Position numbers and translations under genes: made by a program
The notes under the pieces: generated by a model
What the model saw: the letters and a program-made list of their open reading frames with translations, nothing else
The model's database searches: none
What the model was told of the DNA's origin: nothing
Source: an uncultured bacterium
Lineage (GTDB): Bacteria > Krumholzibacteriota > Krumholzibacteriia > G020349025
Assembly: GCA_964567755.1 (NCBI GenBank)
Contig: CAZMNW010000061.1
Location: 4,890 to 68,889 of the forward strand
Length of the DNA stretch: 64,000 bases
Reading direction: 5' to 3'
In this document: in pieces, positions 11,191 through 61,114 of the stretch
How positions within the stretch are numbered: position 1 is the first letter of the stretch
How the letters are laid out: each line of letters begins with the position of its first letter

Positions 11191-12897
11191 ATGCAGCACG
11201 GAGCAAACGGGCCTCGGGGTTTCTGGAGACGCTGGGTCTTCTCCCTCGATCACAAGACCATTGCCAAGCAATACCTGGTGACTGGGCTCGTCATGGCGAT
11301 CGTCGGCGGCTGGCTTGCCCAGGGAATGCGGGTGCAGCTGGCGTGGCCGTATCGAGATTTCCCGTTCTTCGGTCTCATCGAGCCCGGGCGCTACAACGCG
11401 CTCGTGACCATGCATGGCACCATCATGCTGTTCTGGGTGGCGATGCCGATCTTGCTCGGTGCGTTCGGGAACTTCCTCATCCCGCTCATGATCGGCGCGC
11501 GCGACATGGCGTTTCCGCGCCTCAACATGCTGTCCTTCTGGACCTTTCTGCTCAGTACGCTGGTCCTGCTGGCGTCGTTTTTCGTCGAATCCGGGCCGGC
11601 GGCCGGCGGCTGGACCGCGTATCCGCCTCTGTCGGCCGTGCCCGGCTACACCGGCGTCGATGTTGGCACCGATCTATGGATCGTTGCGGTGGCGCTCGAG
11701 TTTATTTCAGTGTTGATGGGCGGCGTCAACTTCCTGACCACGGCCGTCAACCTGCGCGCCCGCGGGCTCCGCATGATGGACCTGCCGCTCGTGGTTTGGA
11801 TGCTGCTCGTGTCCTCGGTGCTGTTCATGTTGTCGGTGGGCCCATTGATCGCCGGTGCCGCCATGCTCTTCCTCGATCGCAACGCCGGCAGTGGTTTCTT
11901 CGATCCGGCCAAGGGCGGTGACCCGCTGCTGTGGCAGCATCTCTTCTGGTTCTTCGGCCATCCCGAGGTGTACGTCATCCTGCTGCCAGGGCTCGGGATC
12001 GTGGCGGAAGTTCTCACGGCGGGTGCGCGAAAGACCCTCTTCGGCTACACCATGATCGTGTGGGCAGTGATCGTGTCGGGGCTGCTCAGCTTCTTGGTGT
12101 GGTCGCACCATCAGTTCGTGAGCGGGCTCGATCCCCGCTTCGCCATGCCTTTCGCGCTCACCACGATTCTCATCTCCGTGCCGTTCGCCGTGCAGTTGTT
12201 CGCGCTCATCGCCACGCTGTGGCGCGGTTCCATTCGATACTCGCCGGCGATGCTGTTCGCCGTCGGCACCATCGCCACATTTCTCGTCGGCGGCACCACG
12301 GGGATTGTTCTGGGTGCAGCTGCCGCCGACATCTATTTCCACGACACCTATTTCGTCGTCGCACACTTTCATTACACACTTTTCCCCGCGGTCATTCTCG
12401 CCATGCACGCCGGGATCTACCACTGGTTCCCGAAAATGTTCGGGCGTTTGATGAATGCCAGATTGGGGCATGTACACTTTTGGCTGACCTTCGTTTTCTT
12501 CCAGTTGACGTTCATCCCGCAGTTCTTGCTCGGACTCGCGGGGCACCCGCGTCGCGTCGCGGATCCCCTGCAGTTCGATCTGTTGTTGTCCGGGATGCAG
12601 CCATACAACATCGTGTCCACCATCGGCGCGCTGGGCCTGTTCGCGGCGCAAGTGCCGTTCCTGATCAATTTCTGTTGGAGTCTCTGGCGCGGGAAGCATG
12701 CCGGCGCCAATCCCTGGCAGGCCACCACGATCGAGTGGCTGGCTTCTTCGCCACCTCCGCACGACAACTTCCCAGGCGAGGTCGTGGCGGTGCGCGGGCC
12801 CTACGAGTACAGCACTCCCGGAAGTGACCGCGATTGGCTGCCCCAGGGGGAGCTGGAAGGTGCGGATTTGGCAGCGCCCACGGTAGCAGCGCCATGA
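11191..12897 (+). CDS. coxA: Cytochrome c oxidase subunit I (A1-type haem-copper oxidase)
   Basis: DHKTI, TMHGTIM, WFFGHPEVY, WSHHQF and VAHFHYT. Confidence 0.97.
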   Translation: MQHGANGPRGFWRRWVFSLDHKTIAKQYLVTGLVMAIVGGWLAQGMRVQLAWPYRDFPFFGLIEPGRYNALVTMHGTIMLFWVAMPILLGAFGNFLIPLMIGARDMAFPRLNMLSFWTFLLSTLVLLASFFVESGPAAGGWTAYPPLSAVPGYTGVDVGTDLWIVAVALEFISVLMGGVNFLTTAVNLRARGLRMMDLPLVVWMLLVSSVLFMLSVGPLIAGAAMLFLDRNAGSGFFDPAKGGDPLLWQHLFWFFGHPEVYVILLPGLGIVAEVLTAGARKTLFGYTMIVWAVIVSGLLSFLVWSHHQFVSGLDPRFAMPFALTTILISVPFAVQLFALIATLWRGSIRYSPAMLFAVGTIATFLVGGTTGIVLGAAAADIYFHDTYFVVAHFHYTLFPAVILAMHAGIYHWFPKMFGRLMNARLGHVHFWLTFVFFQLTFIPQFLLGLAGHPRRVADPLQFDLLLSGMQPYNIVSTIGALGLFAAQVPFLINFCWSLWRGKHAGANPWQATTIEWLASSPPPHDNFPGEVVAVRGPYEYSTPGSDRDWLPQGELEGADLAAPTVAAP

Positions 12898-13496
12898 AGG
12901 AAGGCAGTCGGACGATGTCGGCGAATGTCGCGCCACTCGCAGAGGGACGAGCCTCCACACGTGTTCCCACCGGACGGCTCGGAATGTGGTGGTTCCTCGG
13001 TTCGGAGTTCACACTCTTCGCCGGGATGATGCTGATTTATGTCGTGAACCGCGTCCGGCATCCGGACTGGGCGAGCGTCGCGTCAAACACCTGGATCGCA
13101 CTCGGCGTGGCGGGCACGGCGGCGCTGCTCGCCAGCATTTTCACCGTGGGGCGCGCGCAAGTGGCAGCGAAGCGAAACCAGGCCGTGACTGCGGCGCGTT
13201 GGCTGTTCGCCACGGCTGTACTGGGCGCGGCGTTTCTCGTTTGCCAGGCACTCGAGTACGCACGGGCCCTTGGCGCCGGGCTGGATCCGTCCGCGCATCT
13301 CTTCTGGGCGTATTACTTCCTCATGACCGGGATGCATGCGACGCGAATCTTGGGCGGCGTGGTGGCGTTGACGGCGGTGCTTCCCGCCGCAGCCCGCGGG
13401 AACCACATGCGCCGCGTCGGAACAGTCGGATTGTATTGGCGATTCGTTTGCATCGTTTGGTTGGTGTACTTCATGCTGTTGTACGTCGTGCGTTGA
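12894..13496 (+). CDS. coxC: Cytochrome c oxidase subunit III-like protein, copy 1
   Basis: GMWWFLGSEFTLF and YWRFVCIVWLVYF; ATGA overlap with coxA. Confidence 0.85.
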   Translation: MKEGSRTMSANVAPLAEGRASTRVPTGRLGMWWFLGSEFTLFAGMMLIYVVNRVRHPDWASVASNTWIALGVAGTAALLASIFTVGRAQVAAKRNQAVTAARWLFATAVLGAAFLVCQALEYARALGAGLDPSAHLFWAYYFLMTGMHATRILGGVVALTAVLPAAARGNHMRRVGTVGLYWRFVCIVWLVYFMLLYVVR

Positions 13497-23043: not shown

Positions 23044-24525
23044 TCAGCGCTGTGCGAGGCGTGTGGCGATGGCCTCGGCTTCCTTGATGCAAGCATTCAT
23101 CGCGATGCCGCGATAGGAATTGCCCGAAAGATGCAGACCGATGTGCCGTTGGAGAGCGGTGTCGATGCGCGCCAACGTGCGCGCATGACCCACAGGGTAT
23201 TGAGGAATGCCTCGCGGATGACGGATGACGCCAAGGACCTCGGGGTCGCCGTGCAGATTCAAGAGCCGATGCAGCGTGGTGAGCGCGCGCTGCGTGAGCT
23301 GGGCGTCGGTTTCCTCGACAGCGCCGGGGTCGCGTGCACCTCCAATCATCGTGCGCAGCAGCACCTGCCCGTCTCGTGCACGGCCCGGAAAGACCCAGGA
23401 GTCGAAGAGCGTGCCGAGAATCGGCAGTTTCTCGCAGGCTGGTACCAGGAAGCCGAAGCCACGGCTCACATGCTGCAAATCCTGGGCGCGGAAATCGAGG
23501 CACACTACCGCCACCGGGGCTGAAGGGATGCTGACTACCGCGCTCGCCAACTCGGCGTCGAGCGGATGCAGCAGTGCCGCGGCTTTCCATGCCGGGCCTG
23601 CGATCACCACGTCCGTGGCTTCGACACTCTCGCCATCAGGAATCGTCAATCGCCAGCGCGGCTCGCCAAGGTGTGATGCCCCCCGTGCGCCCCCCACAGG
23701 GGCAGGGTCTCCGATCGGCGCAATCGCATCGACCGGTGTGTCCAAGTGCAACCGCGGGCCGAGAGCCTGCACCAAAGCGCGAACGAGCGTTTCCATGCCA
23801 TCGACGAAGGAAGTGAGCGTGCCACCTGGCCCGATGGGACCGCCCGCCGCGCCACGACGATCTCCTTCTCCCCGCGCACCGGCAGTCATGGTCGCGTCCG
23901 GCTCGTCTCTGCTGGCCCGAAGTTCCCGGCGCCGGGCAATCATGGCCTTGAACAAGCCACCGCAACGGCGCTCCATTTCACGCATGCGCGGGAACGCGCA
24001 CTCGAGGCTCAGCGTTCTCGAGTCCCCGGCATAGATCCCGGTCACCATCGCATCGACCAAGACCTCGGCAGCCTCACGGCCGATGCGTCGTGCGGCGAAA
24101 TCGAAAACGGATTCGTCGGCATCTTCCCGTCGCGGGGGTTGCGCCCATTCCAGGAGTACGCGAGCCCTACCGCGCAGGCTCAAGACATCGCTGGTGAGGA
24201 ACTGCGCCGGACGTTGCGGCAGCGCGCGCAAGGCACCGGCGCGCACGATCCAACGAGTGCTCGCGTCACTGCTCGCCTGCACCACCTGAGGCTGCAGTCC
24301 CAGGAACTCGATCAGGCGCGTGGTGGCCGGCTCGTTGTCGAGCCAACCGTTCGGACCCCATTCACACAAGGTGCCGCTACGTCGCTCGCTCCGAATGTTG
24401 CCGCCCGCACGCCCATGGGTCTCGAACACCTGGACGTCGATCCCCAGCCGTTGGAGGTGAAACCCCAAGGCCAAGCCGGAAATGCCGCCGCCCACTACGG
24501 CAACTCGAGTCCGGAGCGTGGCCAT
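23044..24525 (-). CDS. hemG: Protoporphyrinogen oxidase (HemY-type flavoprotein)
   Basis: VGGGISGL FAD motif, EWGPNG, GIYAGD and GNSYRGIAMNACI. Confidence 0.93.
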   Translation of the reverse strand: MATLRTRVAVVGGGISGLALGFHLQRLGIDVQVFETHGRAGGNIRSERRSGTLCEWGPNGWLDNEPATTRLIEFLGLQPQVVQASSDASTRWIVRAGALRALPQRPAQFLTSDVLSLRGRARVLLEWAQPPRREDADESVFDFAARRIGREAAEVLVDAMVTGIYAGDSRTLSLECAFPRMREMERRCGGLFKAMIARRRELRASRDEPDATMTAGARGEGDRRGAAGGPIGPGGTLTSFVDGMETLVRALVQALGPRLHLDTPVDAIAPIGDPAPVGGARGASHLGEPRWRLTIPDGESVEATDVVIAGPAWKAAALLHPLDAELASAVVSIPSAPVAVVCLDFRAQDLQHVSRGFGFLVPACEKLPILGTLFDSWVFPGRARDGQVLLRTMIGGARDPGAVEETDAQLTQRALTTLHRLLNLHGDPEVLGVIRHPRGIPQYPVGHARTLARIDTALQRHIGLHLSGNSYRGIAMNACIKEAEAIATRLAQR

Positions 24526-24579
24526 GCGAACCACCTGCCGAGGTGCGGCGCCAATGCCCTGGGGCTCGTGGCGGCGCGA

Positions 24580-25980
24580 TCAGATCGTGCGGGAAAACGT
24601 CTTCTCGGTGTCCTTATCCTTCAAGTACCGATCGAACGTCATGGCGATGTTGCGGATGAAGACCCGACCCACGCGGGTGACGGCGATCGTTGCAACATCG
24701 AGATGCAGAAAGCCGCTCTGCTCATGTGCGCGCAGGCCTTCGAGTTCGGCGGCGAAATAGGTGCCGAAGTCGAGTCCGAAGCGCCGCTCGACGTCCTGGA
24801 GATCGAGATGGAAGTTGCACATGATCTGAGTGATCACGTGCCGGCGAATGGCGTCGTCCGACGACAGCAGCACGCCACGCAGCACCGGCAGGCGATCGGC
24901 GCGCAACGAATCGTAATAGGAATCTTGGTTCTTGTGGTTCTGGATGTAGGCGCCCTGAAGGTCGCCGATGCCGGAAACACCGAAAGCGATGGCATCGGTC
25001 GCGGGCTTGACCGTGTAGCCCATGAAGTTGCGGTGCAGCACCCGGTTCTGCAAGGCGCGGGCCATCTCGTCGCTGGGCAACGCGAAGTGATCCATGCCGA
25101 TCTGCACGTAGCCGGCATCCGTGAACTTGCGCACGCCGAGGAGGTAGAGCTCCACCTTCAGCTCCGGCGGCGGCAGCATGTCTTCGGTCATGACGTTCTG
25201 GTTGCCGGATTTCCATGGTACGAAGGCGAAGCTGTACATCGCCACGCGCTCGGGACGCATGCCGAGGACCGAGTCGAGCGTGCGCTCGAACGTGACGCAG
25301 GTCTGCAGCGGCAAACCATAGATGAGATCGACGTTGATGCTGTCGAAGCCCTGGCGGCGACTGTAGTCGAAGAGCTCGCGCGTGCCGGGCTCGTCCTGAT
25401 AGCGGCTGATGATGGCTTGCACCTCGGGGGTGAAGTCCTGCACCCCCATGCTGAGCCGGTTGAAACCGAACTCGCGCAAGACATCGATATGCTCCTGCGT
25501 GGTGACGCGTGGATCGACCTCGATGGCGACCTCGGCCTCGGGAAGGATCTCGAAGCGGTCGAGGACGGTTTGATGCAACTGGCGCATTTCCGCCGGTGAG
25601 TAATAGGTGGGTGTGCCCCCGCCCCAGTGGTACTGCGCCACCTGGCGCCGGTGCGGCAGATGCTTGCTCACGAGGTCGATCTCGCGCTGGAGGTATCCCA
25701 GGTACTCGAGTGCGCGCTCGCGTTTCTTGGTGATGACTACGTGGCAGCCGCAGAAGGTGCAACGCTCGTGACAGAAGGGCAGGTGAAAATACAGCGACAG
25801 CGGTTCGTTCGCGTGCGTGTCCGCCTCGGCGAGCTTGCCCTGGTAATCGGCTTCGCCTACGCCGGCATGAAACTCCACCGCTGTGGGATAGGACGTGTAG
25901 CGCGGCCCTGGCCGATCGAACCTGCGGATCAGCTCCGCTGTCAGCTCGGGCTCTGGAGGATGCGCCTGCGAGGGTCTCAT
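24580..25980 (-). CDS. hemN: Oxygen-independent coproporphyrinogen III oxidase
   Basis: GPRYTSYPTA, HLPFCHERCTFCGC, WGGGTPT and RNFMGY. Confidence 0.96.
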   Translation of the reverse strand: MRPSQAHPPEPELTAELIRRFDRPGPRYTSYPTAVEFHAGVGEADYQGKLAEADTHANEPLSLYFHLPFCHERCTFCGCHVVITKKRERALEYLGYLQREIDLVSKHLPHRRQVAQYHWGGGTPTYYSPAEMRQLHQTVLDRFEILPEAEVAIEVDPRVTTQEHIDVLREFGFNRLSMGVQDFTPEVQAIISRYQDEPGTRELFDYSRRQGFDSINVDLIYGLPLQTCVTFERTLDSVLGMRPERVAMYSFAFVPWKSGNQNVMTEDMLPPPELKVELYLLGVRKFTDAGYVQIGMDHFALPSDEMARALQNRVLHRNFMGYTVKPATDAIAFGVSGIGDLQGAYIQNHKNQDSYYDSLRADRLPVLRGVLLSSDDAIRRHVITQIMCNFHLDLQDVERRFGLDFGTYFAAELEGLRAHEQSGFLHLDVATIAVTRVGRVFIRNIAMTFDRYLKDKDTEKTFSRTI

Positions 25981-26098
25981 GGATGTCACGGCTTCTTTGC
26001 GATCCGGGTGAGCACACTGGAGCAACTCTCAGATGGAATATACGGACCCGGCTTGCCGACGACCACCCCGTGAGGGGTGCGGGTGCGGGCTCTGGCCC

Positions 26099-35746: not shown

Positions 35747-36802
35747 TCATTCCTCGCGCGGGCGCCACGAGTGCACGTGCTCGACCAGGCGGCGCACATT
35801 GTCCACGGGTGTTTCGGGAAGAATCCCATGACCGAGATTGAAGATGTGTCCGGGAGCATTCCCGGCACGCTCGAGCACGCGGTCGGCGCGCTCGCGCAGC
35901 GCCGGCCACGGCGCGAACAGCGTCGCCGGATCGAGGTTGCCTTGGACGGCGAAGTCGGGGCCGAGGGTGCGGCGAGCCAGATCGAGAGGCACGCGCCAAT
36001 CGAGGCTCAGCACGTCGGCGCCGCAGAGGCGCAAGTGATCGGCCGCGCCCCAAGCGTCGCGGGCGAAATAGATGATGGGCGCTGCACCCGCAGTGGCGCT
36101 GTGGACGTCGGCGATCATCTGTTGCACGTGCGGCAACGCCCAGCGCGCGAAATCATCCGGGTCGAGCAGACCCGCCCAGGTGTCGAAGATCTGCACGGCC
36201 TGGGCGCCGGCTTCGATCTGCGCCACGAGGTACGCCGCGTTGGTCGCCGCGAGCTTTTGCAGCAATCGCTCTCCCGTCACCGGATCCTCGTACAGGAGGC
36301 GCTTCATGCGCGTGAACTCTTTGGCACCACCGCCCTCGACGAGATAGTTGGCGAGCGTCCACGGCGCGCCACAAAAGCCGATGAGCGCCGTCTCGGGCGC
36401 GAGCTCGCTGCGCAAGCGGCGCAGGGCTTCGAGGACGTAGGGCACCGAGGCCTGCGGATCGGGAATGCGCAAGGACTCGACCTGAGCGCGCGTACGCACG
36501 GGGTCGGGGATCAGCGGACCCGGAGCGAATTCGATGTGCACGCCCATGCCTTCGACGGGGACCAAGATGTCGCTGAACAGAATCGCCGCATCGACGCCGA
36601 GAGCGCGCACGGGCTGCAACGTCACCTCGACCGCGAGATCCGGGTTCTTGCACATGTCGAGGAAGCCGTGGCGCTCCCGGATGGCGCGGTACTCCGGCAT
36701 GTAGCGCCCGGCCTGGCGCATGAACCACACGGGCCGGTGTGACGTCGGGAGTCGGCCGCACGCGCGCAGGAACGGGACCTCGCGCTCCGGTTGGGTGCTC
36801 AT
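35747..36802 (-). CDS. hemE: Uroporphyrinogen decarboxylase
   Basis: PVWFMRQAGRYMPEY, FSDIL, QGNLDP and NLGHGI. Confidence 0.97.
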   Translation of the reverse strand: MSTQPEREVPFLRACGRLPTSHRPVWFMRQAGRYMPEYRAIRERHGFLDMCKNPDLAVEVTLQPVRALGVDAAILFSDILVPVEGMGVHIEFAPGPLIPDPVRTRAQVESLRIPDPQASVPYVLEALRRLRSELAPETALIGFCGAPWTLANYLVEGGGAKEFTRMKRLLYEDPVTGERLLQKLAATNAAYLVAQIEAGAQAVQIFDTWAGLLDPDDFARWALPHVQQMIADVHSATAGAAPIIYFARDAWGAADHLRLCGADVLSLDWRVPLDLARRTLGPDFAVQGNLDPATLFAPWPALRERADRVLERAGNAPGHIFNLGHGILPETPVDNVRRLVEHVHSWRPREE

Positions 36803-38109
36803 GCGTGGATCTCCTCGAGGGCAGCGCCGATGGCGCGCACAGTCTCGTCGACCACGGGCTCATCGTGGGCGGCACTCAAGAAACACGCTTCGAACTGCGA
36901 AGGCGCGAGCAAGACGCCGCGGCGCAACAAGGCTTGGTGAAAGCGGGCGAACAGCTTGGTGTCGCAGCGCGCGGCCTCGACCCAGCTGCGCACGGGCCCG
37001 GCGTGGAAGAACAACGTCCACATCGACCCGATGTGCTGCACGCAAGCGTGGAATCCGAGGCGTTGCAGGTGCGCTTCGATGCCGGTCACGAGCCGCTGCG
37101 TCCGCGCCTCGAGACGCGTGTAGAGATCCGGGGTCGCCGCAATGAGCTCGAGCATGGCCAGGCCGGCGGCGACAGCGACCGGATTCCCCGACAGCGTGCC
37201 GGCTTGGTAGACCGGGCCGCTGGGGGCGATCATCTCCATGAGCTCGCGCCGCCCGCCGTAAGCACCGATCGGCAACCCGCCGCCGATGATCTTGCCGAAG
37301 GTGACGAGATCGGCGCGAATGCCGAGCCGCTCCTGCGCTCCTCCGGCTGCGAGACGGAACCCGGTCATCACCTCGTCGAAAAGAAGCAAAGCCTCGTTGG
37401 CGTCGCACAGCTCGCGCAGTTTCTGCAAGAAAAGCCGTCTCGGCAGCACGACACCCATGTTGCCGACGACGGGCTCGACGATGACCGCGGCGATGGCGCC
37501 ATGGTTGGCGTCGAAGTACTCGGCGACGAGATCGGCGTCGTTGAATTCGGCGACCAGCGTATCCGCGGCCACTCCGGTCGGCACACCGGGGCTGTCGGGG
37601 AGCCCGAGCGTCACCACGCCGGACCCGGCCTTGATGAGGAAGGAATCGGCGTGACCGTGATAGCAACCGGCGAACTTCACGATCTTGGAACGGCCGGTGT
37701 AGGCGCGGGCCAGGCGAATGGCGGACATCGTGGCCTCGGTGCCGGAGTTCACCAACCGGACCATGTCGACGCCGGGGACCATGGCGCAGATGCGTTCGGC
37801 GATCTCGATCTCGGCTGCGGTGGGTATGCCGAAGCTGGTGCCGCGCGCAGAGGCGGACCGCACGGCTTCGACGATGCGCGGGTGCGCGTGACCGAAGAGG
37901 AGAGGTCCCCAGGAGCCGATGTAGTCGATGTAGCGCCGCCCGTCTTCGTCCCAGATGGTAGAGCCTTCGCCTCGAGCGGCGAAGATCGCTTCACCACCGA
38001 CGGCGCGGAAGGCGCGCACGGGAGAATTCACGCCTCCTGGAATCCAGTGGAGCGCGCGGTTCATGAGCTCGCGACTGCGCGGGCCGGTAGTGTCGTCCAC
38101 GGCAACCAT
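36799..38109 (-). CDS. hemL: Glutamate-1-semialdehyde 2,1-aminomutase
   Basis: PGGVNSPVRAF, NSGTEA, FDEVMTGFR, GKIIGGG and QAGTLSGNP. Confidence 0.97.
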   Translation of the reverse strand: MVAVDDTTGPRSRELMNRALHWIPGGVNSPVRAFRAVGGEAIFAARGEGSTIWDEDGRRYIDYIGSWGPLLFGHAHPRIVEAVRSASARGTSFGIPTAAEIEIAERICAMVPGVDMVRLVNSGTEATMSAIRLARAYTGRSKIVKFAGCYHGHADSFLIKAGSGVVTLGLPDSPGVPTGVAADTLVAEFNDADLVAEYFDANHGAIAAVIVEPVVGNMGVVLPRRLFLQKLRELCDANEALLLFDEVMTGFRLAAGGAQERLGIRADLVTFGKIIGGGLPIGAYGGRRELMEMIAPSGPVYQAGTLSGNPVAVAAGLAMLELIAATPDLYTRLEARTQRLVTGIEAHLQRLGFHACVQHIGSMWTLFFHAGPVRSWVEAARCDTKLFARFHQALLRRGVLLAPSQFEACFLSAAHDEPVVDETVRAIGAALEEIHA

Positions 38110-38234
38110 CCCATTGCGCCAACGCGCGTGCATCGTTCGCGGCCAGAGGCCGGTTCACCCGCGCGTGCAGTCGGAATCTATCACAGGATCTCGAGTACCG
38201 GGAGGTCAGAGCGGGGTGTGCCGGCCGGCGTTCT

Positions 38235-40055
38235 TCATTTCAACACGATGAGCTTGCGCGTTTCGCGTTCGACATGGCCGGGCTGGTCGAGGAAGGCAGC
38301 CTGCAAACGCAGATAGTAGGCGCCCGACGGCACGCCGTGGCCGCCATCGTCCAGGCCGTTCCACTCGATCGAGTAACTGGTGGCCTGCAACGGTTCGGAA
38401 AGCAACGCGCGCACGAGCCGGCCGCGAACGTCGAAGAGATGCAGGGTCACGTGCGCCGGTGCGGGCAGCTCGATGCGAATCGGTGTCGAGGGCACAAGGG
38501 GATAGGGGTTGGGCACGATGCGAGCGGTTCGGCCACCGAACGGCGGTGGCTCGGGACCCAAGTCGCGGAGCGCACGGTATGCCGCGAACGCATCGACGAT
38601 GCCCCACCCTTGGTAACGATCGGGTGCCGCGGCGCGGCTCGCGGTGGAACGCAAGGCATCGCGGATCTGCAGCGGTGTTGCGTCGGGGAAGGCGGAGATC
38701 AGCAGTGCCGCCACTCCGGCGACCAGTGGACATGCAGCCGACGTGCCGCCACCCGCGCCGTAGACCATGGGGTTGTCCGCTTGCGCCATGATGGTGCCGA
38801 TGCCTTCGGCGAGAACGTCCGGTTTGGTGCGTCCATCGGCGGTCGGCCCGTAGGAGCTGAGGATGGAGTAGACGCCGTTCCGATCGACGGCGCCGACGCC
38901 GATGACGGAATCGCCGTCGGCCGGTGCGAAGAGAGTATTGGGTGCGGTGAAGATTCCCTCGTTGCCGGCTGCATTCACCACGACGATTCCACGCGCCACG
39001 GCCATGTCGGCGGCACGGGTGATGACAGTCGTGTTGCCATCCATGTCTTCCCAGCCGTGATCGAATCGAGGATCGTCGAAAGTGCGGTAACCGACGGACG
39101 AGCTCACGACGTCAGCGCCAATGCTATCCGCCCATTCCACTGCCGCGACCCACAGGTCCTCCTCGAGCGGAGATTCGACGGCGTCGTTCTCGGTGCGTGC
39201 CAGGAGGAAGTCGGCTTCGAAGGCGGGTCCGATGAGCTTCCCGGGTTTGTATCCAGCCAGAATCGACAGTGTTTCCAACCCATGCGACGAGCACACCTGC
39301 CCCGCAGGGCAGGGAGCGGGGTCGGGATTTTCTTCATCGAGGACGAAGTCCCAGGTGGCATGGATACGCAGGTTCGCCATGGATTCGTGCGACAGCTGAC
39401 GATAGCCATTGTCGAAGTGGGCGATGAGGACGCCGCTTCCGGTCAGCCCCATGCGATGCAGGTCGACGACGCCGATTTGGTTCAGCTGGTTGAACGATGG
39501 GCCATACGGAAACGGTGACGGTGGCGTATCCAGTAAACCGGAGTCGGCCTGCCGCCGCATATCCGCGGCGGATGGCGTCGCGGCCTTGGATGCGGACGAG
39601 GGATCCGGGGCTCGTCGCGCCAAAGGTTGAATGCCACGCACGCACGGCAGCGCGCGCAACGCCGCCAGTTGCGCCGGTGTGGCGTCGACGCTCACCGCAT
39701 TGAGCCACTTCGAGAGCTGCCGCAGCCGCTGCACCCGTGCAGCAACCGCCGCCACATAAGATGGCTCGAGCCGCAGATCGCCGCCATCGATCACCTGTTG
39801 TGGCTCGCGCACCTTGAGCCGGCGCCGGAGCGATCGCTCGGAAACGAGCGTCTGCGCCACCGATGGCTTGGCCGTGCTCTGTGGACCCTTGTCACGGAAG
39901 AAAACCCAGGCGCGGAGGACGAGGCCAGGTTTGGGCTCGCTGTCCTCTGCGCGCGCAGCGCTTGTTCCGGGACTCCAAGACACGCCGAGGAGACTCCCCG
40001 CAATGCACAGCATCCGGAGTCGAGTGAGGAGATTGGCTCGGCGTGACAACGGCAT
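38235..40055 (-). CDS. Secreted S8 (subtilase) serine peptidase with a C-terminal FlgD-Ig/T9SS-CTD-like domain
   Basis: Triad FDNG, SHG and GTSAACP; tail PNPY...LFDVRGRLVR...EWNGLDDGG..VPSGAYYLRL...KLIVLK. Confidence 0.92.
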   Translation of the reverse strand: MPLSRRANLLTRLRMLCIAGSLLGVSWSPGTSAARAEDSEPKPGLVLRAWVFFRDKGPQSTAKPSVAQTLVSERSLRRRLKVREPQQVIDGGDLRLEPSYVAAVAARVQRLRQLSKWLNAVSVDATPAQLAALRALPCVRGIQPLARRAPDPSSASKAATPSAADMRRQADSGLLDTPPSPFPYGPSFNQLNQIGVVDLHRMGLTGSGVLIAHFDNGYRQLSHESMANLRIHATWDFVLDEENPDPAPCPAGQVCSSHGLETLSILAGYKPGKLIGPAFEADFLLARTENDAVESPLEEDLWVAAVEWADSIGADVVSSSVGYRTFDDPRFDHGWEDMDGNTTVITRAADMAVARGIVVVNAAGNEGIFTAPNTLFAPADGDSVIGVGAVDRNGVYSILSSYGPTADGRTKPDVLAEGIGTIMAQADNPMVYGAGGGTSAACPLVAGVAALLISAFPDATPLQIRDALRSTASRAAAPDRYQGWGIVDAFAAYRALRDLGPEPPPFGGRTARIVPNPYPLVPSTPIRIELPAPAHVTLHLFDVRGRLVRALLSEPLQATSYSIEWNGLDDGGHGVPSGAYYLRLQAAFLDQPGHVERETRKLIVLK

Positions 40056-40103
40056 GCACCCTCGGCGGAACGGGCTTCATCATTATAGCATCCGACCGGC
40101 GGA

Positions 40104-41099
40104 TTACCCCGCCCATCCCTGCAAGTGCTGCATGACGATCTCCACCAGAGCGGTGACGTGATCGGAGCGATCGTTGAGCGCCGGGATGTAGCGCAAGCGC
40201 TGGCCACCGGACTGCAAGAAGCCCTGTCGGCTGCGAATGGCGATCTCTTCGAGCGTCTCGAGACAATCGACGGCGAAGCCCGGGCAAATGACGTCGACGC
40301 TCGCGACCCCCTTGCGCGCCCACTCTTGGAGTGTCGGATCGGTATACGGTTGCAGCCATTCCTCGCGCCCGAAGCGCGACTGATATGCGAGCGCAAAGCG
40401 GTGCGCATCGAGGCCCAGAGCCGTGGCGAGACGCGCCGCAGTCTGCTCGCACTGGCCGCGGTAGGGGTCGCCGGCCGCGTCGTAGCGTTTGGGTAAGCCA
40501 TGGAACGAGACGAGCAGGCGATCGGAAGCGCCGTGCTGCTCCCAGAACTCACGCACGCTGCGCGCGAGAGCCTCGATGTATCGACCCTGATCGTGGTAGC
40601 CAAAGATCGTGCGCATTTCCGGCACACGCCGCCAACCCGCGAGCGCTCGCGTCACGGCGTCGAACGCGGAGCCCGTGGTCGGGGACGAGTACTGTGGAAA
40701 CAGCGGCAGCACGATCAGGTGCTGGCAGCCGGCTGCACGCAACTGTTCGAGTGCGCGCGCCATGCTCGGATTGCCGTACCCCATGCCGATGGCGACTTCG
40801 ACCGGGTTGGTGACCTGGAGGCGCAGCGCGCCGGCGAGCGCGGTGGCGAGATCCTGCATGATGCAGAGGAGCGGCGACCCCTCGTTGGTCCAGATGCTGG
40901 CATACGCGTGCGCCGAGCGCCGCGGTCGCAATGGCAAAATGATCAGATACAGGATGGGAAGCCAAATGGCGCGTGGCAGGTCGACGACACGCCGGTCGGA
41001 AAGGAACTGCCGCAGATAACGTCGGACCGCCGCGGCCGTGGGTGCGTCCGGCGTTCCGACGTTGGTGAGCAGGACGCCAATTCGAGCCTGCATTCTCAT
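40104..41099 (-). CDS. hemH: Ferrochelatase
   Basis: LTNVGTPD, LFPQYS, SFHGLP, YQSRFG, WLQPYT and DCLETLEEI. Confidence 0.96.
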   Translation of the reverse strand: MRMQARIGVLLTNVGTPDAPTAAAVRRYLRQFLSDRRVVDLPRAIWLPILYLIILPLRPRRSAHAYASIWTNEGSPLLCIMQDLATALAGALRLQVTNPVEVAIGMGYGNPSMARALEQLRAAGCQHLIVLPLFPQYSSPTTGSAFDAVTRALAGWRRVPEMRTIFGYHDQGRYIEALARSVREFWEQHGASDRLLVSFHGLPKRYDAAGDPYRGQCEQTAARLATALGLDAHRFALAYQSRFGREEWLQPYTDPTLQEWARKGVASVDVICPGFAVDCLETLEEIAIRSRQGFLQSGGQRLRYIPALNDRSDHVTALVEIVMQHLQGWAG

Positions 41100-41306
41100 C
41101 TCCCACCGTGACGTTCCGGGGCCCCCGCGCCTGCGCCGCCACCCGACCGAGCGGGCGTCGACACGATTGGCGGGCGGCTTCGCCACCGCCGGGCATTCTC
41201 GCACATGGGGGGTGTCCCTTGACGGCCCCAGATTCGTGCCGTTTACTCGCTCCTCGAAATGCCGGCGAGATCGGACCGCACATTCATCGATTTCAAGGAG
41301 TCGTTC

Positions 41307-42383
41307 GTGAACCAGCAAGGCCGCGATTCACATTTTCTGCGGCGCCGCGGGCCAGCCGTGTTGGCGGCGATGGCGCTGTGGAACGCGTGCGCCAGCGGCG
41401 CCGGGGCAGAGGACCCGCCTGACCGCAAGGAAACGCATCTTCGTAACGTTCGCCAACTCACTTTCGGCGGCGAGAATGCCGAGGCCTACTGGTCACACGA
41501 TGGCAAGCAGCTCATCCTGCAATCGACCCGCGACAGCCTCGGGTGCGATCAGATCTTCGTCATGAACCCGGAGGGTTCGAACACGCGCATGGTGTCCACG
41601 GGCAAAGGACGCACGACGTGCGCCTATTTCTTCCCGAACGGCAAGCGCATCCTGTATGCATCGACCCATGCCGCGAGCCCCGACTGCCCGCCAGCCCCGG
41701 ACTTCTCCAAGGGTTACGTGTGGAAGCTGTACCCGACGTATGATTTGTACGCTGCCGATCCTGACGGGACCAATCTCTTGCGTCTCACCACGACCGAGGG
41801 CTACGACGCCGAAGCGACGATTGCCCCCGATGGCAGCCGTGTCATCTTCACCTCCGAGCGCGACGGCGATCTCGACCTCTACACCATGCGGCTCGACGGC
41901 ACCGACGTCCGCCGGCTCACCACCGAGCTGGGCTACGATGGCGGCGCGTTCTTCTCGCCCGACAGCAAGAAGATCGTCTGGCGCGCATCGAGACCACGCA
42001 GCGCCGAGGACAAGGCGGCGTATACCGCGCTGCTGCACGACCACACCATTCGCCCGGGGGCGCTGGAGATTTTCACCGCCAACGCCGATGGCAGCGCTGC
42101 GCGCCAGTTGACGCAGAATGACGCTGCCAATTTCTGCCCGTTCTTCTTCCCGGACGGGAAGCGAATCATCTTCGCCTCCAACATGGCGAATCCCCAGGGC
42201 CGGAACTTCGACCTGTGGATGATGAACGTCGACGGCTCGGGCCTCGAGCAAGTGACATTCGATCCGACCTTCGACGGGTTCCCCATGTTCAGTCCGGATG
42301 GTAAGCGGTTGGTGTTCGCCAGCAACCGCAACTCGAAGGGTCGCACCGACACGAACGTCTTCCTCGCCGATTGGGTCGAGTGA
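41307..42383 (+). CDS. Secreted TolB-like PD40-repeat protein
   Basis: GTG after AAGGAG; signal peptide; ENAEAYWS, YDAEAT and repeated FSPDG. Confidence 0.88.
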   Translation: MNQQGRDSHFLRRRGPAVLAAMALWNACASGAGAEDPPDRKETHLRNVRQLTFGGENAEAYWSHDGKQLILQSTRDSLGCDQIFVMNPEGSNTRMVSTGKGRTTCAYFFPNGKRILYASTHAASPDCPPAPDFSKGYVWKLYPTYDLYAADPDGTNLLRLTTTEGYDAEATIAPDGSRVIFTSERDGDLDLYTMRLDGTDVRRLTTELGYDGGAFFSPDSKKIVWRASRPRSAEDKAAYTALLHDHTIRPGALEIFTANADGSAARQLTQNDAANFCPFFFPDGKRIIFASNMANPQGRNFDLWMMNVDGSGLEQVTFDPTFDGFPMFSPDGKRLVFASNRNSKGRTDTNVFLADWVE

Positions 42384-58203: not shown

Positions 58204-58303
58204 GCGCGGGGGCGAACCACCTCGGTCTCGGCTCCTGTTTCGCCAGCGAGAGTCGCGCACGCTACAGTGAATGCAGCCACCGGCGACGCGACGAGGAGAA
58301 CCG

Positions 58304-58999
58304 ATGCGCATGCACGTGGGCACGAGTGGCTACTCCTACAAGGAGTGGAAGCCGGCGTTCTATCCGCAAGAGCTCGCCTCGACTGCGATGCTGCGCTTCT
58401 ATGCCGAGCGGCTCGACACCGTCGAGATCAACAACACCTTCTACCGCATGCCGTCGAAGAAGGTCTTGCAAGGTTGGTGCGCCGAGGTTCCGCCATTTTT
58501 CCGTTTCGCGGTGAAGGCGACGCGGCGCGTCACGCACTTCAAGCGTCTGCGCGATGTGGGCAGCGAGCTGGATTTTCTCTTCGGGAATCTGGCGGCGCTC
58601 GAAGGCCGACTGGGGCCGGTGCTGTTCCAGCTGCCGCCGAATCTCGGCATCGACATGCCGCTGTTACAGGACTTCCTGGCCCAGGTGCCGCCCCACATCC
58701 AGAGCGTGCTGGAGTTTCGCGAGCCGTCCTGGTTCGACGACACGGTGTTTTCTTTGTTGCGGCAGAACGGTGTCGCCTTGTGTGCGATGGAGGAAGAGGA
58801 GGCGGAGGCGCGCGTCGTCCCGACCACCAATTTCGGCTACTTCCGCCTGCGGCGCGAGCGCTATTCCGCCGCGGAGCTCGAATCCTGGGTGGACCGCATC
58901 CGTGCCCAGCCGTGGGACGAAACTTTTGTCTACTTCAAACACGACACCGCCGCCCCGAACCTCGCCTTGGATTTCGTGCGCGCAACGCGCGGCGAATGA
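58304..58999 (+). CDS. DUF72 family protein
   Basis: VGTSGYSYKEW, VEINNTFYRMP, LFQLPP and EFR..SW. Confidence 0.95.
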   Translation: MRMHVGTSGYSYKEWKPAFYPQELASTAMLRFYAERLDTVEINNTFYRMPSKKVLQGWCAEVPPFFRFAVKATRRVTHFKRLRDVGSELDFLFGNLAALEGRLGPVLFQLPPNLGIDMPLLQDFLAQVPPHIQSVLEFREPSWFDDTVFSLLRQNGVALCAMEEEEAEARVVPTTNFGYFRLRRERYSAAELESWVDRIRAQPWDETFVYFKHDTAAPNLALDFVRATRGE

Positions 59000-59028: not shown

Positions 59029-59057
59029 TTGACCGGTGAGTGCTGCGGCGGCATGAT
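59029..59057 (+). promoter_or_regulatory. Putative sigma70 promoter of the disulfide oxidoreductase gene
   Basis: TTGACC-17 bp-CATGAT, 21 nt upstream of the ATG. Confidence 0.55.
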
Positions 59058-59078
59058 GCAGTCAGAGGTGCGAAGATC

Positions 59079-59729
59079 ATGATGCTACAGGAACGAGATC
59101 GTCAAGCGGTGCGCCAGCGGCTCGCGGACTTGGCCAAGCCCGTGCGACTCGTCAATTTCACCCAGGAACTGGAGTGCGAGTTCTGCAGGGAGACGCGGAC
59201 GCTGCTCGAGGAAGTCGTATCCCTCTCGGACAAAGTGAGCTTGGAGGTTTACAACTTCCAGACCGACCGCGATCAACGCGATGCCTACGGCATCGACAAG
59301 ATTCCTGCCACGGTGGTGATGAGCGAGAATGACCTAGGGATCCGTTTCTACGGCATTCCTTCCGGTTACGAGTTCGCCTCGCTCCTGGACACGATGTTGT
59401 TGGTCGCAAGCGGCGACAGTGGTTTGGCGCCGGAAACACGCACGCGACTGGCCCAGCACCAGAAGCCGCTGCATCTCGAGGTGTTCGTCACTCCGACTTG
59501 ACCGCACTGTCCGCGAGCCGTGCTGCTCGCCAACGCCTTCGCGATCGAAAGCATGCTCGTGCGCGTCGACTGCATCGAGGCCACGGAATTCCCGCACCTG
59601 GCGCAGCGCCATCGCGTCATGGGTGTGCCGAAGACAGTGGTGAACGCCACCGGCGGTGTCGAAGGTGCCATGCCCGAGTCGCATTACCTCGACGCCGTGC
59701 TCGCCGCCGCCGAAGCGCAAGCCTCCTGA
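59079..59729 (+). CDS. Two-domain glutaredoxin-like protein disulfide oxidoreductase (PDO/AhpF-NTD-like), probable selenoprotein (UPHC)
   Basis: CEFC in domain 1. In-frame TGA 59499-59501 in FVTPT-TGA-PHC, continuing to GVPKTVVN. GIPSGYEF motif. Confidence 0.88.
59513..59530 (+). promoter_or_regulatory. Candidate bacterial SECIS hairpin
   Basis: GCGAGC-CGTGCT-GCTCGC; loop begins 17 nt after the UGA, with G then U near its 5' side. Confidence 0.6.
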
Positions 59730-59793: not shown

Positions 59794-60723
59794 TCACTTC
59801 TTCCATGCACGAATCTTTGTCGAAATCACGGCGTCAGCCGCCGCGTCGCGCAACTCGTCTCCGAGACCGGTCGCGCAACCGGCGTAGGATTTTTCCTCGA
59901 CAATCTCGACGCGCGAGAACCCCGCGTCGCGGACCATCTGGACGTAGTCGTCGCGGAGTGCGGCTCCTGCGACGCAGCCGACGTAGGCCTCGACGGAGGC
60001 CTTCACCGCCGGCGGCAGCGGGCGCAGGAGCACGAGATCGCTCACCACCAGTCGGCCGCCGGAGCGCAACACGCGCAGGGACTCGCGAAAGACCTGCGGC
60101 TTGTCCGGAGACAAGTTGATGACGCAGTTCGAGATGATGACGTCGACGCTGGAGTCGGCCACTGGCAGATGCTCGATCTCGCCGAGACGGAACTCGATGT
60201 TGTCGATTCCCACCTTGCGCGCATTCAGCCGCGCGCGTTCGATCATGTCGGGTGTCATGTCGACGCCGAGAACGCGACCCGAGGGCCCGACCTCGCGGGC
60301 GGCGAGGAACGCATCCATCCCTGCCCCGGAGCCCAAGTCGAGCACGGTCTCGCCGGCGCCGAGGTGCGCGTGTGCCAGGGGATTGCCGCAGCCGAGCCCG
60401 AGGTTGGCACCCTCGGGGATGGCCCGAGCCTGTTCGGGGCTGTAGCCCAACTGCTCCGGATTCTCGACCACGCTGGTGCCGCAGCAGCCAGGGGACTCGG
60501 CGCGCGCAATCTGAGCGTACCTGTCGCGGACCAGACGATGGATGTCCATCTCCGAGGTCAGCGCGATCTCTTGTCCAGGCGCCGGGGCAGAGGCGTCGCA
60601 ACAAGCCGACGCCGTATCTTTGGTGACGGCTGGCGCATCCGTAGTGTCGCTGCAACATGTTGGGGCGCAACAAGACTCGTTGGCGTCCGTCGTGTCCTTC
60701 ACGTGTGAATTCGTCGCATCCAT
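59794..60723 (-). CDS. arsM: Arsenite S-adenosylmethionine methyltransferase with a Cys-pair-rich N-terminal extension
   Basis: GCCG, ANLGLGCGNP, LDLGSGAG, IISNCVINL and YVGCVAGA. Confidence 0.93.
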   Translation of the reverse strand: MDATNSHVKDTTDANESCCAPTCCSDTTDAPAVTKDTASACCDASAPAPGQEIALTSEMDIHRLVRDRYAQIARAESPGCCGTSVVENPEQLGYSPEQARAIPEGANLGLGCGNPLAHAHLGAGETVLDLGSGAGMDAFLAAREVGPSGRVLGVDMTPDMIERARLNARKVGIDNIEFRLGEIEHLPVADSSVDVIISNCVINLSPDKPQVFRESLRVLRSGGRLVVSDLVLLRPLPPAVKASVEAYVGCVAGAALRDDYVQMVRDAGFSRVEIVEEKSYAGCATGLGDELRDAAADAVISTKIRAWKK

Positions 60724-60738
60724 GATTCTTCCTCCTTC

Positions 60739-61056
60739 TCAGAGTTCCTCGATGAGTGCCTGCAGCCGGCGGACGGTGGCGTCGTCGAGGCAGTAGCACA
60801 CGTGCGGCGGTTCCACTTCGCCGCGGATGAGACCCGCTTCCTTGAGCACCTTGAGATGCTGCGACACCGTGGACTGTGCCCGGGGTAGCTCATCGACCAA
60901 GTCGCCGCAGACGCACTCACCCCGCTGGCGCAGCGTGCGCAGGATTCGCAGTCGCAACGGATGTGCGATCCCGCGGGCGAGGCGCGCCAACTCCAGCTCC
61001 TCGCTGCTCCAACCGCTGGCGCGGCGAGCCGGTGTGTCTGGTCGCGAACGGCCCAT
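60739..61056 (-). CDS. arsR: ArsR/SmtB metalloregulator
   Basis: [34 protein letters not shown] and CYC. Confidence 0.93.
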
Positions 61057-61077
61057 GTGGCCACCCCCTTCAATCGT

Positions 61078-61114
61078 CAATCGTAAATATACGATTGGAT
61101 GCCGCGTGGGTCAA
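61078..61114 (-). promoter_or_regulatory. sigma70 promoter of arsR-arsM with overlapping palindromic operator
   Basis: Minus strand TTGACC-17-TATATT. CAATCGTA-AATA-TACGATTG (61078-61097) overlaps the -10 box. Confidence 0.8.

Follow-up and report, generated by a model that had tools for sequence, protein, structure and literature searches.

The 64-kb stretch of DNA analysed here (hereafter, the window) harbors a reading frame in which an in-frame TGA follows one redox motif and opens a second. Translation from the ATG at 59079 gives MMLQERD...ELECEFCRET...LEVFVTPT*PHCPRAVLLANAF...GVPKTVVN...AQAS* (asterisks, TGA codons), and past the internal TGA the frame continues as PHCPRAV...GVPKTVVN up to the terminal TGA (Table 1). 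The gene is thus continuous over both motifs, and the public gene calls divide it into products of 140 and 69 aa. The original prediction had proposed a hidden selenoprotein at this site; its coordinates for the gene, the TGA and a hairpin with the loop 17 nt after the UGA were all found to be correct, and the CEFC motif that it had noted is present. It had also anticipated that standard callers would report two fragments or a pseudogene, the public calls containing two fragments, and that the frame would run through the TGA into the second redox motif of PDO proteins, as was confirmed by the translation and by the match to the TIGR02187 profile.

Table 1. Features of the PDO locus, its neighbors and the second candidate gene (positions in the window).
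Feature	Position	Strand	Remarks
Complete CDS of the predicted selenoprotein	59079..59729	+	216 codons including the predicted Sec141, then stop codon (translation)
N-terminal redox motif C33-E-F-C36	59175..59186	+	Codons 33-36; C33 and C36 invariant in a 20-sequence alignment
In-frame TGA/UGA, predicted U141 (T-P-T-U-P-H-C-P)	59499..59501	+	Aligns with the invariant C141 of Cys-form homologs
C-terminal U-P-H-C motif	59499-59510	+	U141 is the first residue, C144 the last
SECIS-type hairpin GCGAGC-CGUGCU-GCUCGC	59513..59530	+	6-bp stem GCGAGC/GCUCGC, loop CGUGCU
True stop TGA	59727..59729	+	Same stop position in the relatives L004 and L007
Putative Shine-Dalgarno-like AGAGGTG	59064..59070	+	~10 nt 5' of the ATG; read off the sequence
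Possible sigma-70-like promoter, TTGACC, 17-nt spacer, CATGAT	59029..59057	+	Weak match, 9/12 in a consensus scan
DUF72 gene	58271-58999	+	Upstream of the PDO gene, same strand
Arsenite methyltransferase (arsM)	59794-60723	minus	NF008823, 331.6 bits against a cutoff of 263; convergent to the PDO gene
ArsR/SmtB regulator	60739-61080	minus	Beyond arsM
Second UxxC candidate	48782-47376	minus	468 codons; signal peptide, Thioredoxin_7, C-terminal TPR repeats
TGA of the second candidate	48590-48588	minus	...LPLFIEAWAPW-U-HTCRSMRAF...; Pfam Thioredoxin_7 spans the TGA

For the profile and structure-database searches, U was replaced by C in the protein sequence. The NCBIfam model TIGR02187 ("PDO_seleno_TRX") was matched with 270.2 bits (cutoff 185) over residues 5-209 of 216, and the Pfam families Thioredoxin_3 and DUF7088 were matched as well. 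Sequence search against solved structures identified PDB 1J08 (E 4.1e-43, residues 3-210) and 1A8L (E 4.6e-41), along with 2AYT, 2YWM and 2HLS over the full length, the matches to solved PDOs ranging from E 4e-43 to 1e-28. The N-terminal domains of AhpF (1HYU, 1ZYN and 4O5Q) were more distant (E 1e-10 to 1e-11). Two tandem thioredoxin folds are predicted from this whole-chain homology to solved PDO structures, which was detected at the level of sequence. The protein belongs to the PDO family, as U141-P-H-C144 aligns with the invariant C-P-Y-C and the N-terminal CxxC is also present; disulfide oxidoreductase activity is predicted accordingly from its sequence. This is in agreement with the "PDO/glutaredoxin-like" assignment of the original prediction, which is borne out by TIGR02187 and the structures 1J08 and 1A8L. 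Since no signal peptide was evident, the protein is taken to be cytoplasmic.

Two other identities were considered and rejected. AhpF does not fit a protein of 216 aa without the flavoprotein module, and the corresponding models scored far below their cutoffs (TIGR03140, 75.1 bits vs 502.9; TIGR03143, 99 vs 687.65). A classical glutaredoxin, i.e., a single Grx fold of ~80 aa, was likewise discarded (GRX_bact, 18.3 bits vs a cutoff of 90); the Pfam Glutaredoxin model gave a marginal, partial match (25.9 vs 22.9).

The homology to the PDOs of P. furiosus (1A8L), P. horikoshii (1J08), A. aeolicus (2AYT) and A. pernix (2HLS) extends over the full length and comprises two folds, each with a CxxC, and the active-site stretch FVTPTCP(Y/H)CP is common to the archaeal/Aquifex PDOs and the window protein. 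The archaeal/Aquifex proteins, in contrast, contain Cys instead of Sec and originate from hyperthermophiles. They depend on thioredoxin reductase. The N-terminal domain of AhpF is a homologous double fold in which the redox-active CxxC is likewise located in the second fold, relaying electrons to the peroxidase; however, AhpF is a fusion of ~520 aa with a FAD/NAD(P)H reductase module, and its first fold lacks the CxxC that is present as CEFC in the window protein. With the PDO_seleno_TRX family, the protein shares a profile score above the cutoff, the position of the UxxC in the second fold, the stand-alone length of ~215 aa and the location of the predicted SECIS directly 3' of the UGA, and it differs in lineage (probably Ca. 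Krumholzibacteria) and in having U-P-H-C as against the CPYC typical of the Cys forms. The PDO selenoproteins are described as a high-confidence predicted family with a UxxC motif in PMC9312934 and PMC13188914, both of which credit the prediction to Kryukov & Gladyshev 2004; the family is also among the known selenoprotein families listed in a 2007 paper. Hence, the gene at 59079-59729 is a member of a selenoprotein family predicted since 2004, and its identification is an annotation correction and not new biology.

To the TGA codon corresponds an invariant Cys, the first of V-T-P-T-C-P-Y-C-P, in 19 full-length Cys-form homologs showing 52-61% identity. The TGA-bearing sequence occurs unchanged in three independent SRA assemblies (L001-L003), and the TGA is retained in four diverged relatives (L004, from MAG GCA_973527735.1, L006, L007 and L176). 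The protein identity with L004, L006 and L007 is 92-96% at a pS of 0.3-0.4. In these three, the codons flanking the TGA differ synonymously (ACT/ACG, TGT/TGC) and the downstream frame is open, ending at the same place in L004 and L007 and one codon earlier in L006. The frame downstream of the TGA is under purifying selection, with a dN/dS of 0.16-0.18 in most pairs (range 0.16-0.55), compared to 0.04-0.17 upstream.

The alternation between TGA and Cys extends well beyond these relatives. Among the matches listed, the best genome contig was 61% identical to the PDO protein, and the codon of U141 was TGA in five of 80 species-representative loci, belonging to Acidobacteriota (L011), an unclassified bacterium (L016), Chloroflexota (L052), a MAG titled Ca. 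Puniceispirillum (L063) and Ignavibacteria (L083), the others having TGC or TGT. A TGA-specific degenerate pattern retrieved at least 120 TGA-bearing metagenome stretches. Together with the window and its relatives, at least 128 TGA-bearing loci have a frame that stays open for at least 50 codons past the TGA, and all of these translate to a recognisable C-terminal thioredoxin unit. A further hit, LTPF*PSCA in locus L077, was rejected because it lies in a non-coding frame and had matched by chance. One Sec-form homolog (JACXTT010566323.1) has an extra in-frame stop 26 codons past the UGA (...RATVI*ATEFPEL...), which may mark a genuine pseudogene or stem from a sequencing error; the Sec forms are otherwise intact.

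The two forms also differ in the residue preceding the resolving Cys. U-P-H-C was found in 79 of 124 Sec forms (64%), whereas C-P-Y-C was found in 70 of 72 Cys-form loci (L008-L087) and in 108 of 114 Cys-form proteins with a readable motif (P0002-P0120), i.e., 95-97%, the phylogenetic relatedness of the sequences being left in all these counts. It thus appears from the alignments that His before the resolving Cys tracks selenium use.

The hairpin downstream of the UGA was compared with the bacterial SECIS model, which, as quoted in PMC13188914, specifies an apical loop of 3-9 nt, a stem of 4-16 bp, a G in loop position 1-2 and a UGA-to-loop distance of 16-37 nt, in addition to minimum free energy. 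The stem begins 11 nt and the loop 17 nt past the UGA, and the element fits the constraints on loop (6 nt), stem (6 bp), G position and spacing given there. Similar to the SECIS of E. coli fdhF and the bSECIS consensus (bSECISearch), it is a stem-loop within the CDS starting 11 nt past the UGA, with a small apical loop, G-U at loop positions 2-3 and the loop at 17 nt (range 16-37). In contrast to the fdhF element, it has neither sequence similarity nor the bulged U, its stem is just 6 bp long, and no Rfam family was matched. The energy of the hairpin was estimated at -9.1 to -10.2 kcal/mol. When 59499-59560 was folded alone, a z-score of -1.12 was obtained and the 5' arm was paired elsewhere in the MFE structure. 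As the hairpin taken alone is within chance, comparative data were relied upon.

For this purpose, 124 distinct Sec-form and 72 distinct Cys-form sequences were compared in codon register from the U/C codon. In the best local hairpin, the apical loop started at +19 to +21 in 90 of 124 Sec forms vs 5 of 72 Cys forms (p 1e-20). A hairpin whose stem has 5 bp or more and whose 5' arm ends at +18 to +20 was present in 105 of 124 vs 22 of 72 (Fisher p 2.5e-14), and a G occupied loop position 1 or 2 in 88% of the Sec forms vs 44% of the Cys forms. The hairpin is thus enriched in the Sec forms. The frequent loops were CGUGC, CGUGCU, GGU and GGUC, and the stems varied by lineage (GCGAGC/GCUCGC, GCAAGC/GCUUGC, CGCCGGC/GCUGGCG, CCGGGC/GCCUGG and CCGGCCGC/GCGGCUGG). 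The 22 Cys-form genes (31%) form this hairpin, with 5 bp or more, at the place of the SECIS, +12 to +32 nt after TGC/TGT. Part of the signal hence comes from coding constraints or from vestiges of former SECIS elements; the Cys-form hairpins could date from a Sec-to-Cys conversion or arise incidentally from the C-P-x-A-V-x-L-A codons.

An RNAalifold run on all 124 ungapped Sec sequences returned no consensus because the loop length of 3-8 nt displaces the 3' arm. The sequences were then sorted by loop length, and the 6-nt-loop class of the window was analysed (31 sequences). Since this class was chosen for having the hairpin, covariation alone is informative there and not the 100% pairing. The pair 59515-59528 (alignment columns 17-30) was GC in 15, CG in 12 and AU in 4 of the 31 sequences and broken in none, and the pair at columns 18-29 showed AU/GU alternation; a double-sided change thus occurred in one of the six stem pairs of this hairpin-selected alignment. 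The pair 59515-59528 joins the middle base of codon 146 (Arg/Gln/Pro) to the third base of Leu150, where the changes are synonymous (CUC/CUU/CUG); judged from the aligned codons, this is the expected appearance of an RNA constraint acting over a coding sequence.

The genes for Sec decoding were searched for in the window. ARAGORN detected no tRNA or tRNA-Sec in the 64 kb, and Rfam models gave no match at gathering thresholds over the same stretch. The SelD (GxGCGCK) and SelB (GHVDHGKT) motifs were absent from the window and from 212 retrieved loci, and selA, selB, selD and tRNA-Sec were found neither in the window nor in the relative loci. We therefore infer the decoding capacity of the host indirectly; the second UxxC gene of the window (discussed below) would count toward it.

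Considering these observations, 59079-59729 most likely constitutes one gene for a cytoplasmic, stand-alone PDO of the 'AhpF N-terminal domain homolog' family, with two folds, whose UGA at 59499-59501 is decoded as selenocysteine, with a probability of roughly 0.9. The original prediction had named the alignment of homologs as the check for Cys/TGA alternation, and this alternation was found in the five listed genome loci and the metagenome stretches. Its selenoprotein reading is supported by the TGA facing an invariant CxxC Cys, by the conservation of the TGA, by the purifying selection and by the Sec-enriched hairpin with its compensatory pair. Its SECIS-like hairpin has held up likewise, being Sec-enriched, having one covarying pair and fitting the loop, stem, G and spacing constraints quoted in PMC13188914.

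The alternative that survives best, itself improbable, is that the UGA is read without selenium, either as Cys delivered by the Sec machinery (thiophosphate) under selenium limitation or, through a near-cognate or suppressor tRNA, as Trp or Cys. The lack of Sec machinery genes in the window would suit such a readthrough, and most lineages clearly have a functional enzyme of the Cys form. However, a covarying hairpin enriched in the UGA forms at the canonical 11-nt spacing makes sense only with recruitment of SelB. Most genes of the window also end in TGA (35 of 42 confident genes, including the PDO gene), and general suppression would be costly for this reason.

It is very unlikely that the locus is a pseudogene or a sequencing error, i.e., a Cys-type PDO truncated by a nonsense mutation or an assembly error, of which a 140-aa fragment or nothing would be made. 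The 140-aa and 69-aa gene calls and the Sec machinery not seen in the window would accord with truncation. This explanation is nevertheless largely refuted by the occurrence of the same sequence in three independent assemblies, the retention of the TGA in four diverged lineages at a pS of 0.3-0.4, the 75 downstream codons, which stay open under purifying selection, the more than 120 additional TGA forms with open downstream frames, and a hairpin specific to the Sec forms.

The public annotation, if taken literally, implies two products, a CEFC protein of one fold that terminates at TGA 59501, plus a C-terminal protein of 69 aa starting from GTG 59520. This interpretation carries a similarly slight likelihood, as the 69-aa ORF would encode a thioredoxin fold missing its first beta strand and its entire CxxC, and GTG 59520 sits within the hairpin. 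Solved PDOs and TIGR02187, moreover, cover both halves as a single chain, and none of the 19 aligned Cys-form homologs is split. A genome-wide reassignment of TGA to sense (code 4 or 25), to which nothing more than the in-frame TGA itself would point, is refuted by the stop-codon usage, as TGA ends 35 of 42 confident window genes; the genome is also 64% G+C, and the convincing in-frame TGAs are just two, both at UxxC motifs.

If the UGA is decoded as selenocysteine, SelB carrying Sec-tRNASec would bind the hairpin, UGA 59499-59501 would be decoded as Sec, and the ribosome would go on to the real stop at 59727. Sec141 would then replace the attacking (N-terminal) Cys of the C-terminal CxxC, with C144 as the resolving residue, and a U141-C144 selenenylsulfide would form during turnover. 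A likely function of the protein would be the transfer of reducing equivalents from a flavoprotein of the thioredoxin reductase type to disulfide or peroxide-detoxifying clients.

None of the genes for TrxR, peroxiredoxin or OsmC is placed next to the PDO gene in the window, and the redox partner is therefore extrapolated from other lineages, using neighbor counts drawn from genome contigs (loci L008-L087). There, a TrxR-like Pyr_redox_2 flavoprotein gene is found at a median of 6 nt downstream of the PDO gene in 21 Cys-form and 0 Sec-form loci. An OsmC-family gene adjoins the PDO homolog in 18 loci (9 Sec, 9 Cys), and the other recurrent neighbors are an ECF sigma factor (21 loci), a Redoxin/TlpA-like protein (16 loci) and a CsoR-like repressor (13 loci). 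By analogy, these neighborhoods suggest the electron path proposed above.

The adjacency of arsM to the PDO gene is kept in the four relatives L004, L006, L007 and L176, and arsM is also present beside the Cys-form homolog of an Ignavibacteriales MAG (L058). It was set aside as a sign of a dedicated partnership and is a weak lead only, being restricted to the lineage of the window and one Ignavibacteriales locus, with the genes in convergent orientation; arsM and the PDO gene are not co-transcribed owing to this orientation. Any functional link, e.g., reduction of an ArsM disulfide, would be speculative.

A second gene with an in-frame TGA at a UxxC motif was identified in the window (Table 1), and a relaxed scan revealed no further convincing in-frame TGA near C/S/T redox motifs in the window beyond these two. 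Among the best 120 database matches of the second candidate, 71 are full-length proteins with WAPW-C-HTC, the remaining 49 being mostly 377-407-aa fragments that start at a Met six residues past the U. Its TGA is kept in seven lineages (L208-L214), including the MAGs GCA_036505355.1 (Ca. Eisenbacteria) and GCA_041484665.1, and the Sec form is widespread. A long stem-loop follows the UGA in all seven lineages; the apical loop lies near +33 to +38, and the lower stem shows compensatory changes (GAGGG/CCCUC vs GAGAG/CUCUC). No curated NCBIfam selenoprotein model matches the second candidate, and searches of a 2026 selenoprotein review yielded no mention of PF13899, TPR or tetratricopeptide.

A limited full-text search of the literature on selenium use in the Krumholzibacteria phylum returned nothing relevant. 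It can be proposed, as a tentative combination of several ideas that is rather unlikely to hold in full, that a Krumholzibacteria-like lineage decodes Sec and employs two thioredoxin-fold selenoproteins, that the secreted Thioredoxin_7-TPR protein represents an uncatalogued family, and that selenium use and the residue ahead of the resolving Cys evolve together, retuning the redox potential. The current understanding of Sec decoding and of PDO-type oxidoreductases is unchanged by these results. The split public calls for this gene and its relatives hide an intact redox enzyme and understate selenium use in an uncultured lineage of the FCB group. The 124 Sec and 72 Cys sequences form a clean natural experiment, in which a SECIS stem appears to be upheld by a nonsynonymous position paired with the synonymous third base of a Leu codon and in which the preference of the Sec forms for U-P-H-C is also visible.

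Among the other genes of the window, translations read by eye indicated tetrapyrrole genes (HemY-like, HemN-like, HemE, HemL and HemH; 23044-26028 and 35747-41327, minus strand) and the cytochrome oxidase subunits I and III (11191-13496, + strand). The source is probably a Ca. Krumholzibacteria-like bacterium, on the single taxonomic clue obtained from the window: cytochrome oxidase subunit I (11191-12897, + strand) falls in a 90%-identity cluster shared with a protein of 'Candidatus Krumholzibacteria bacterium'.
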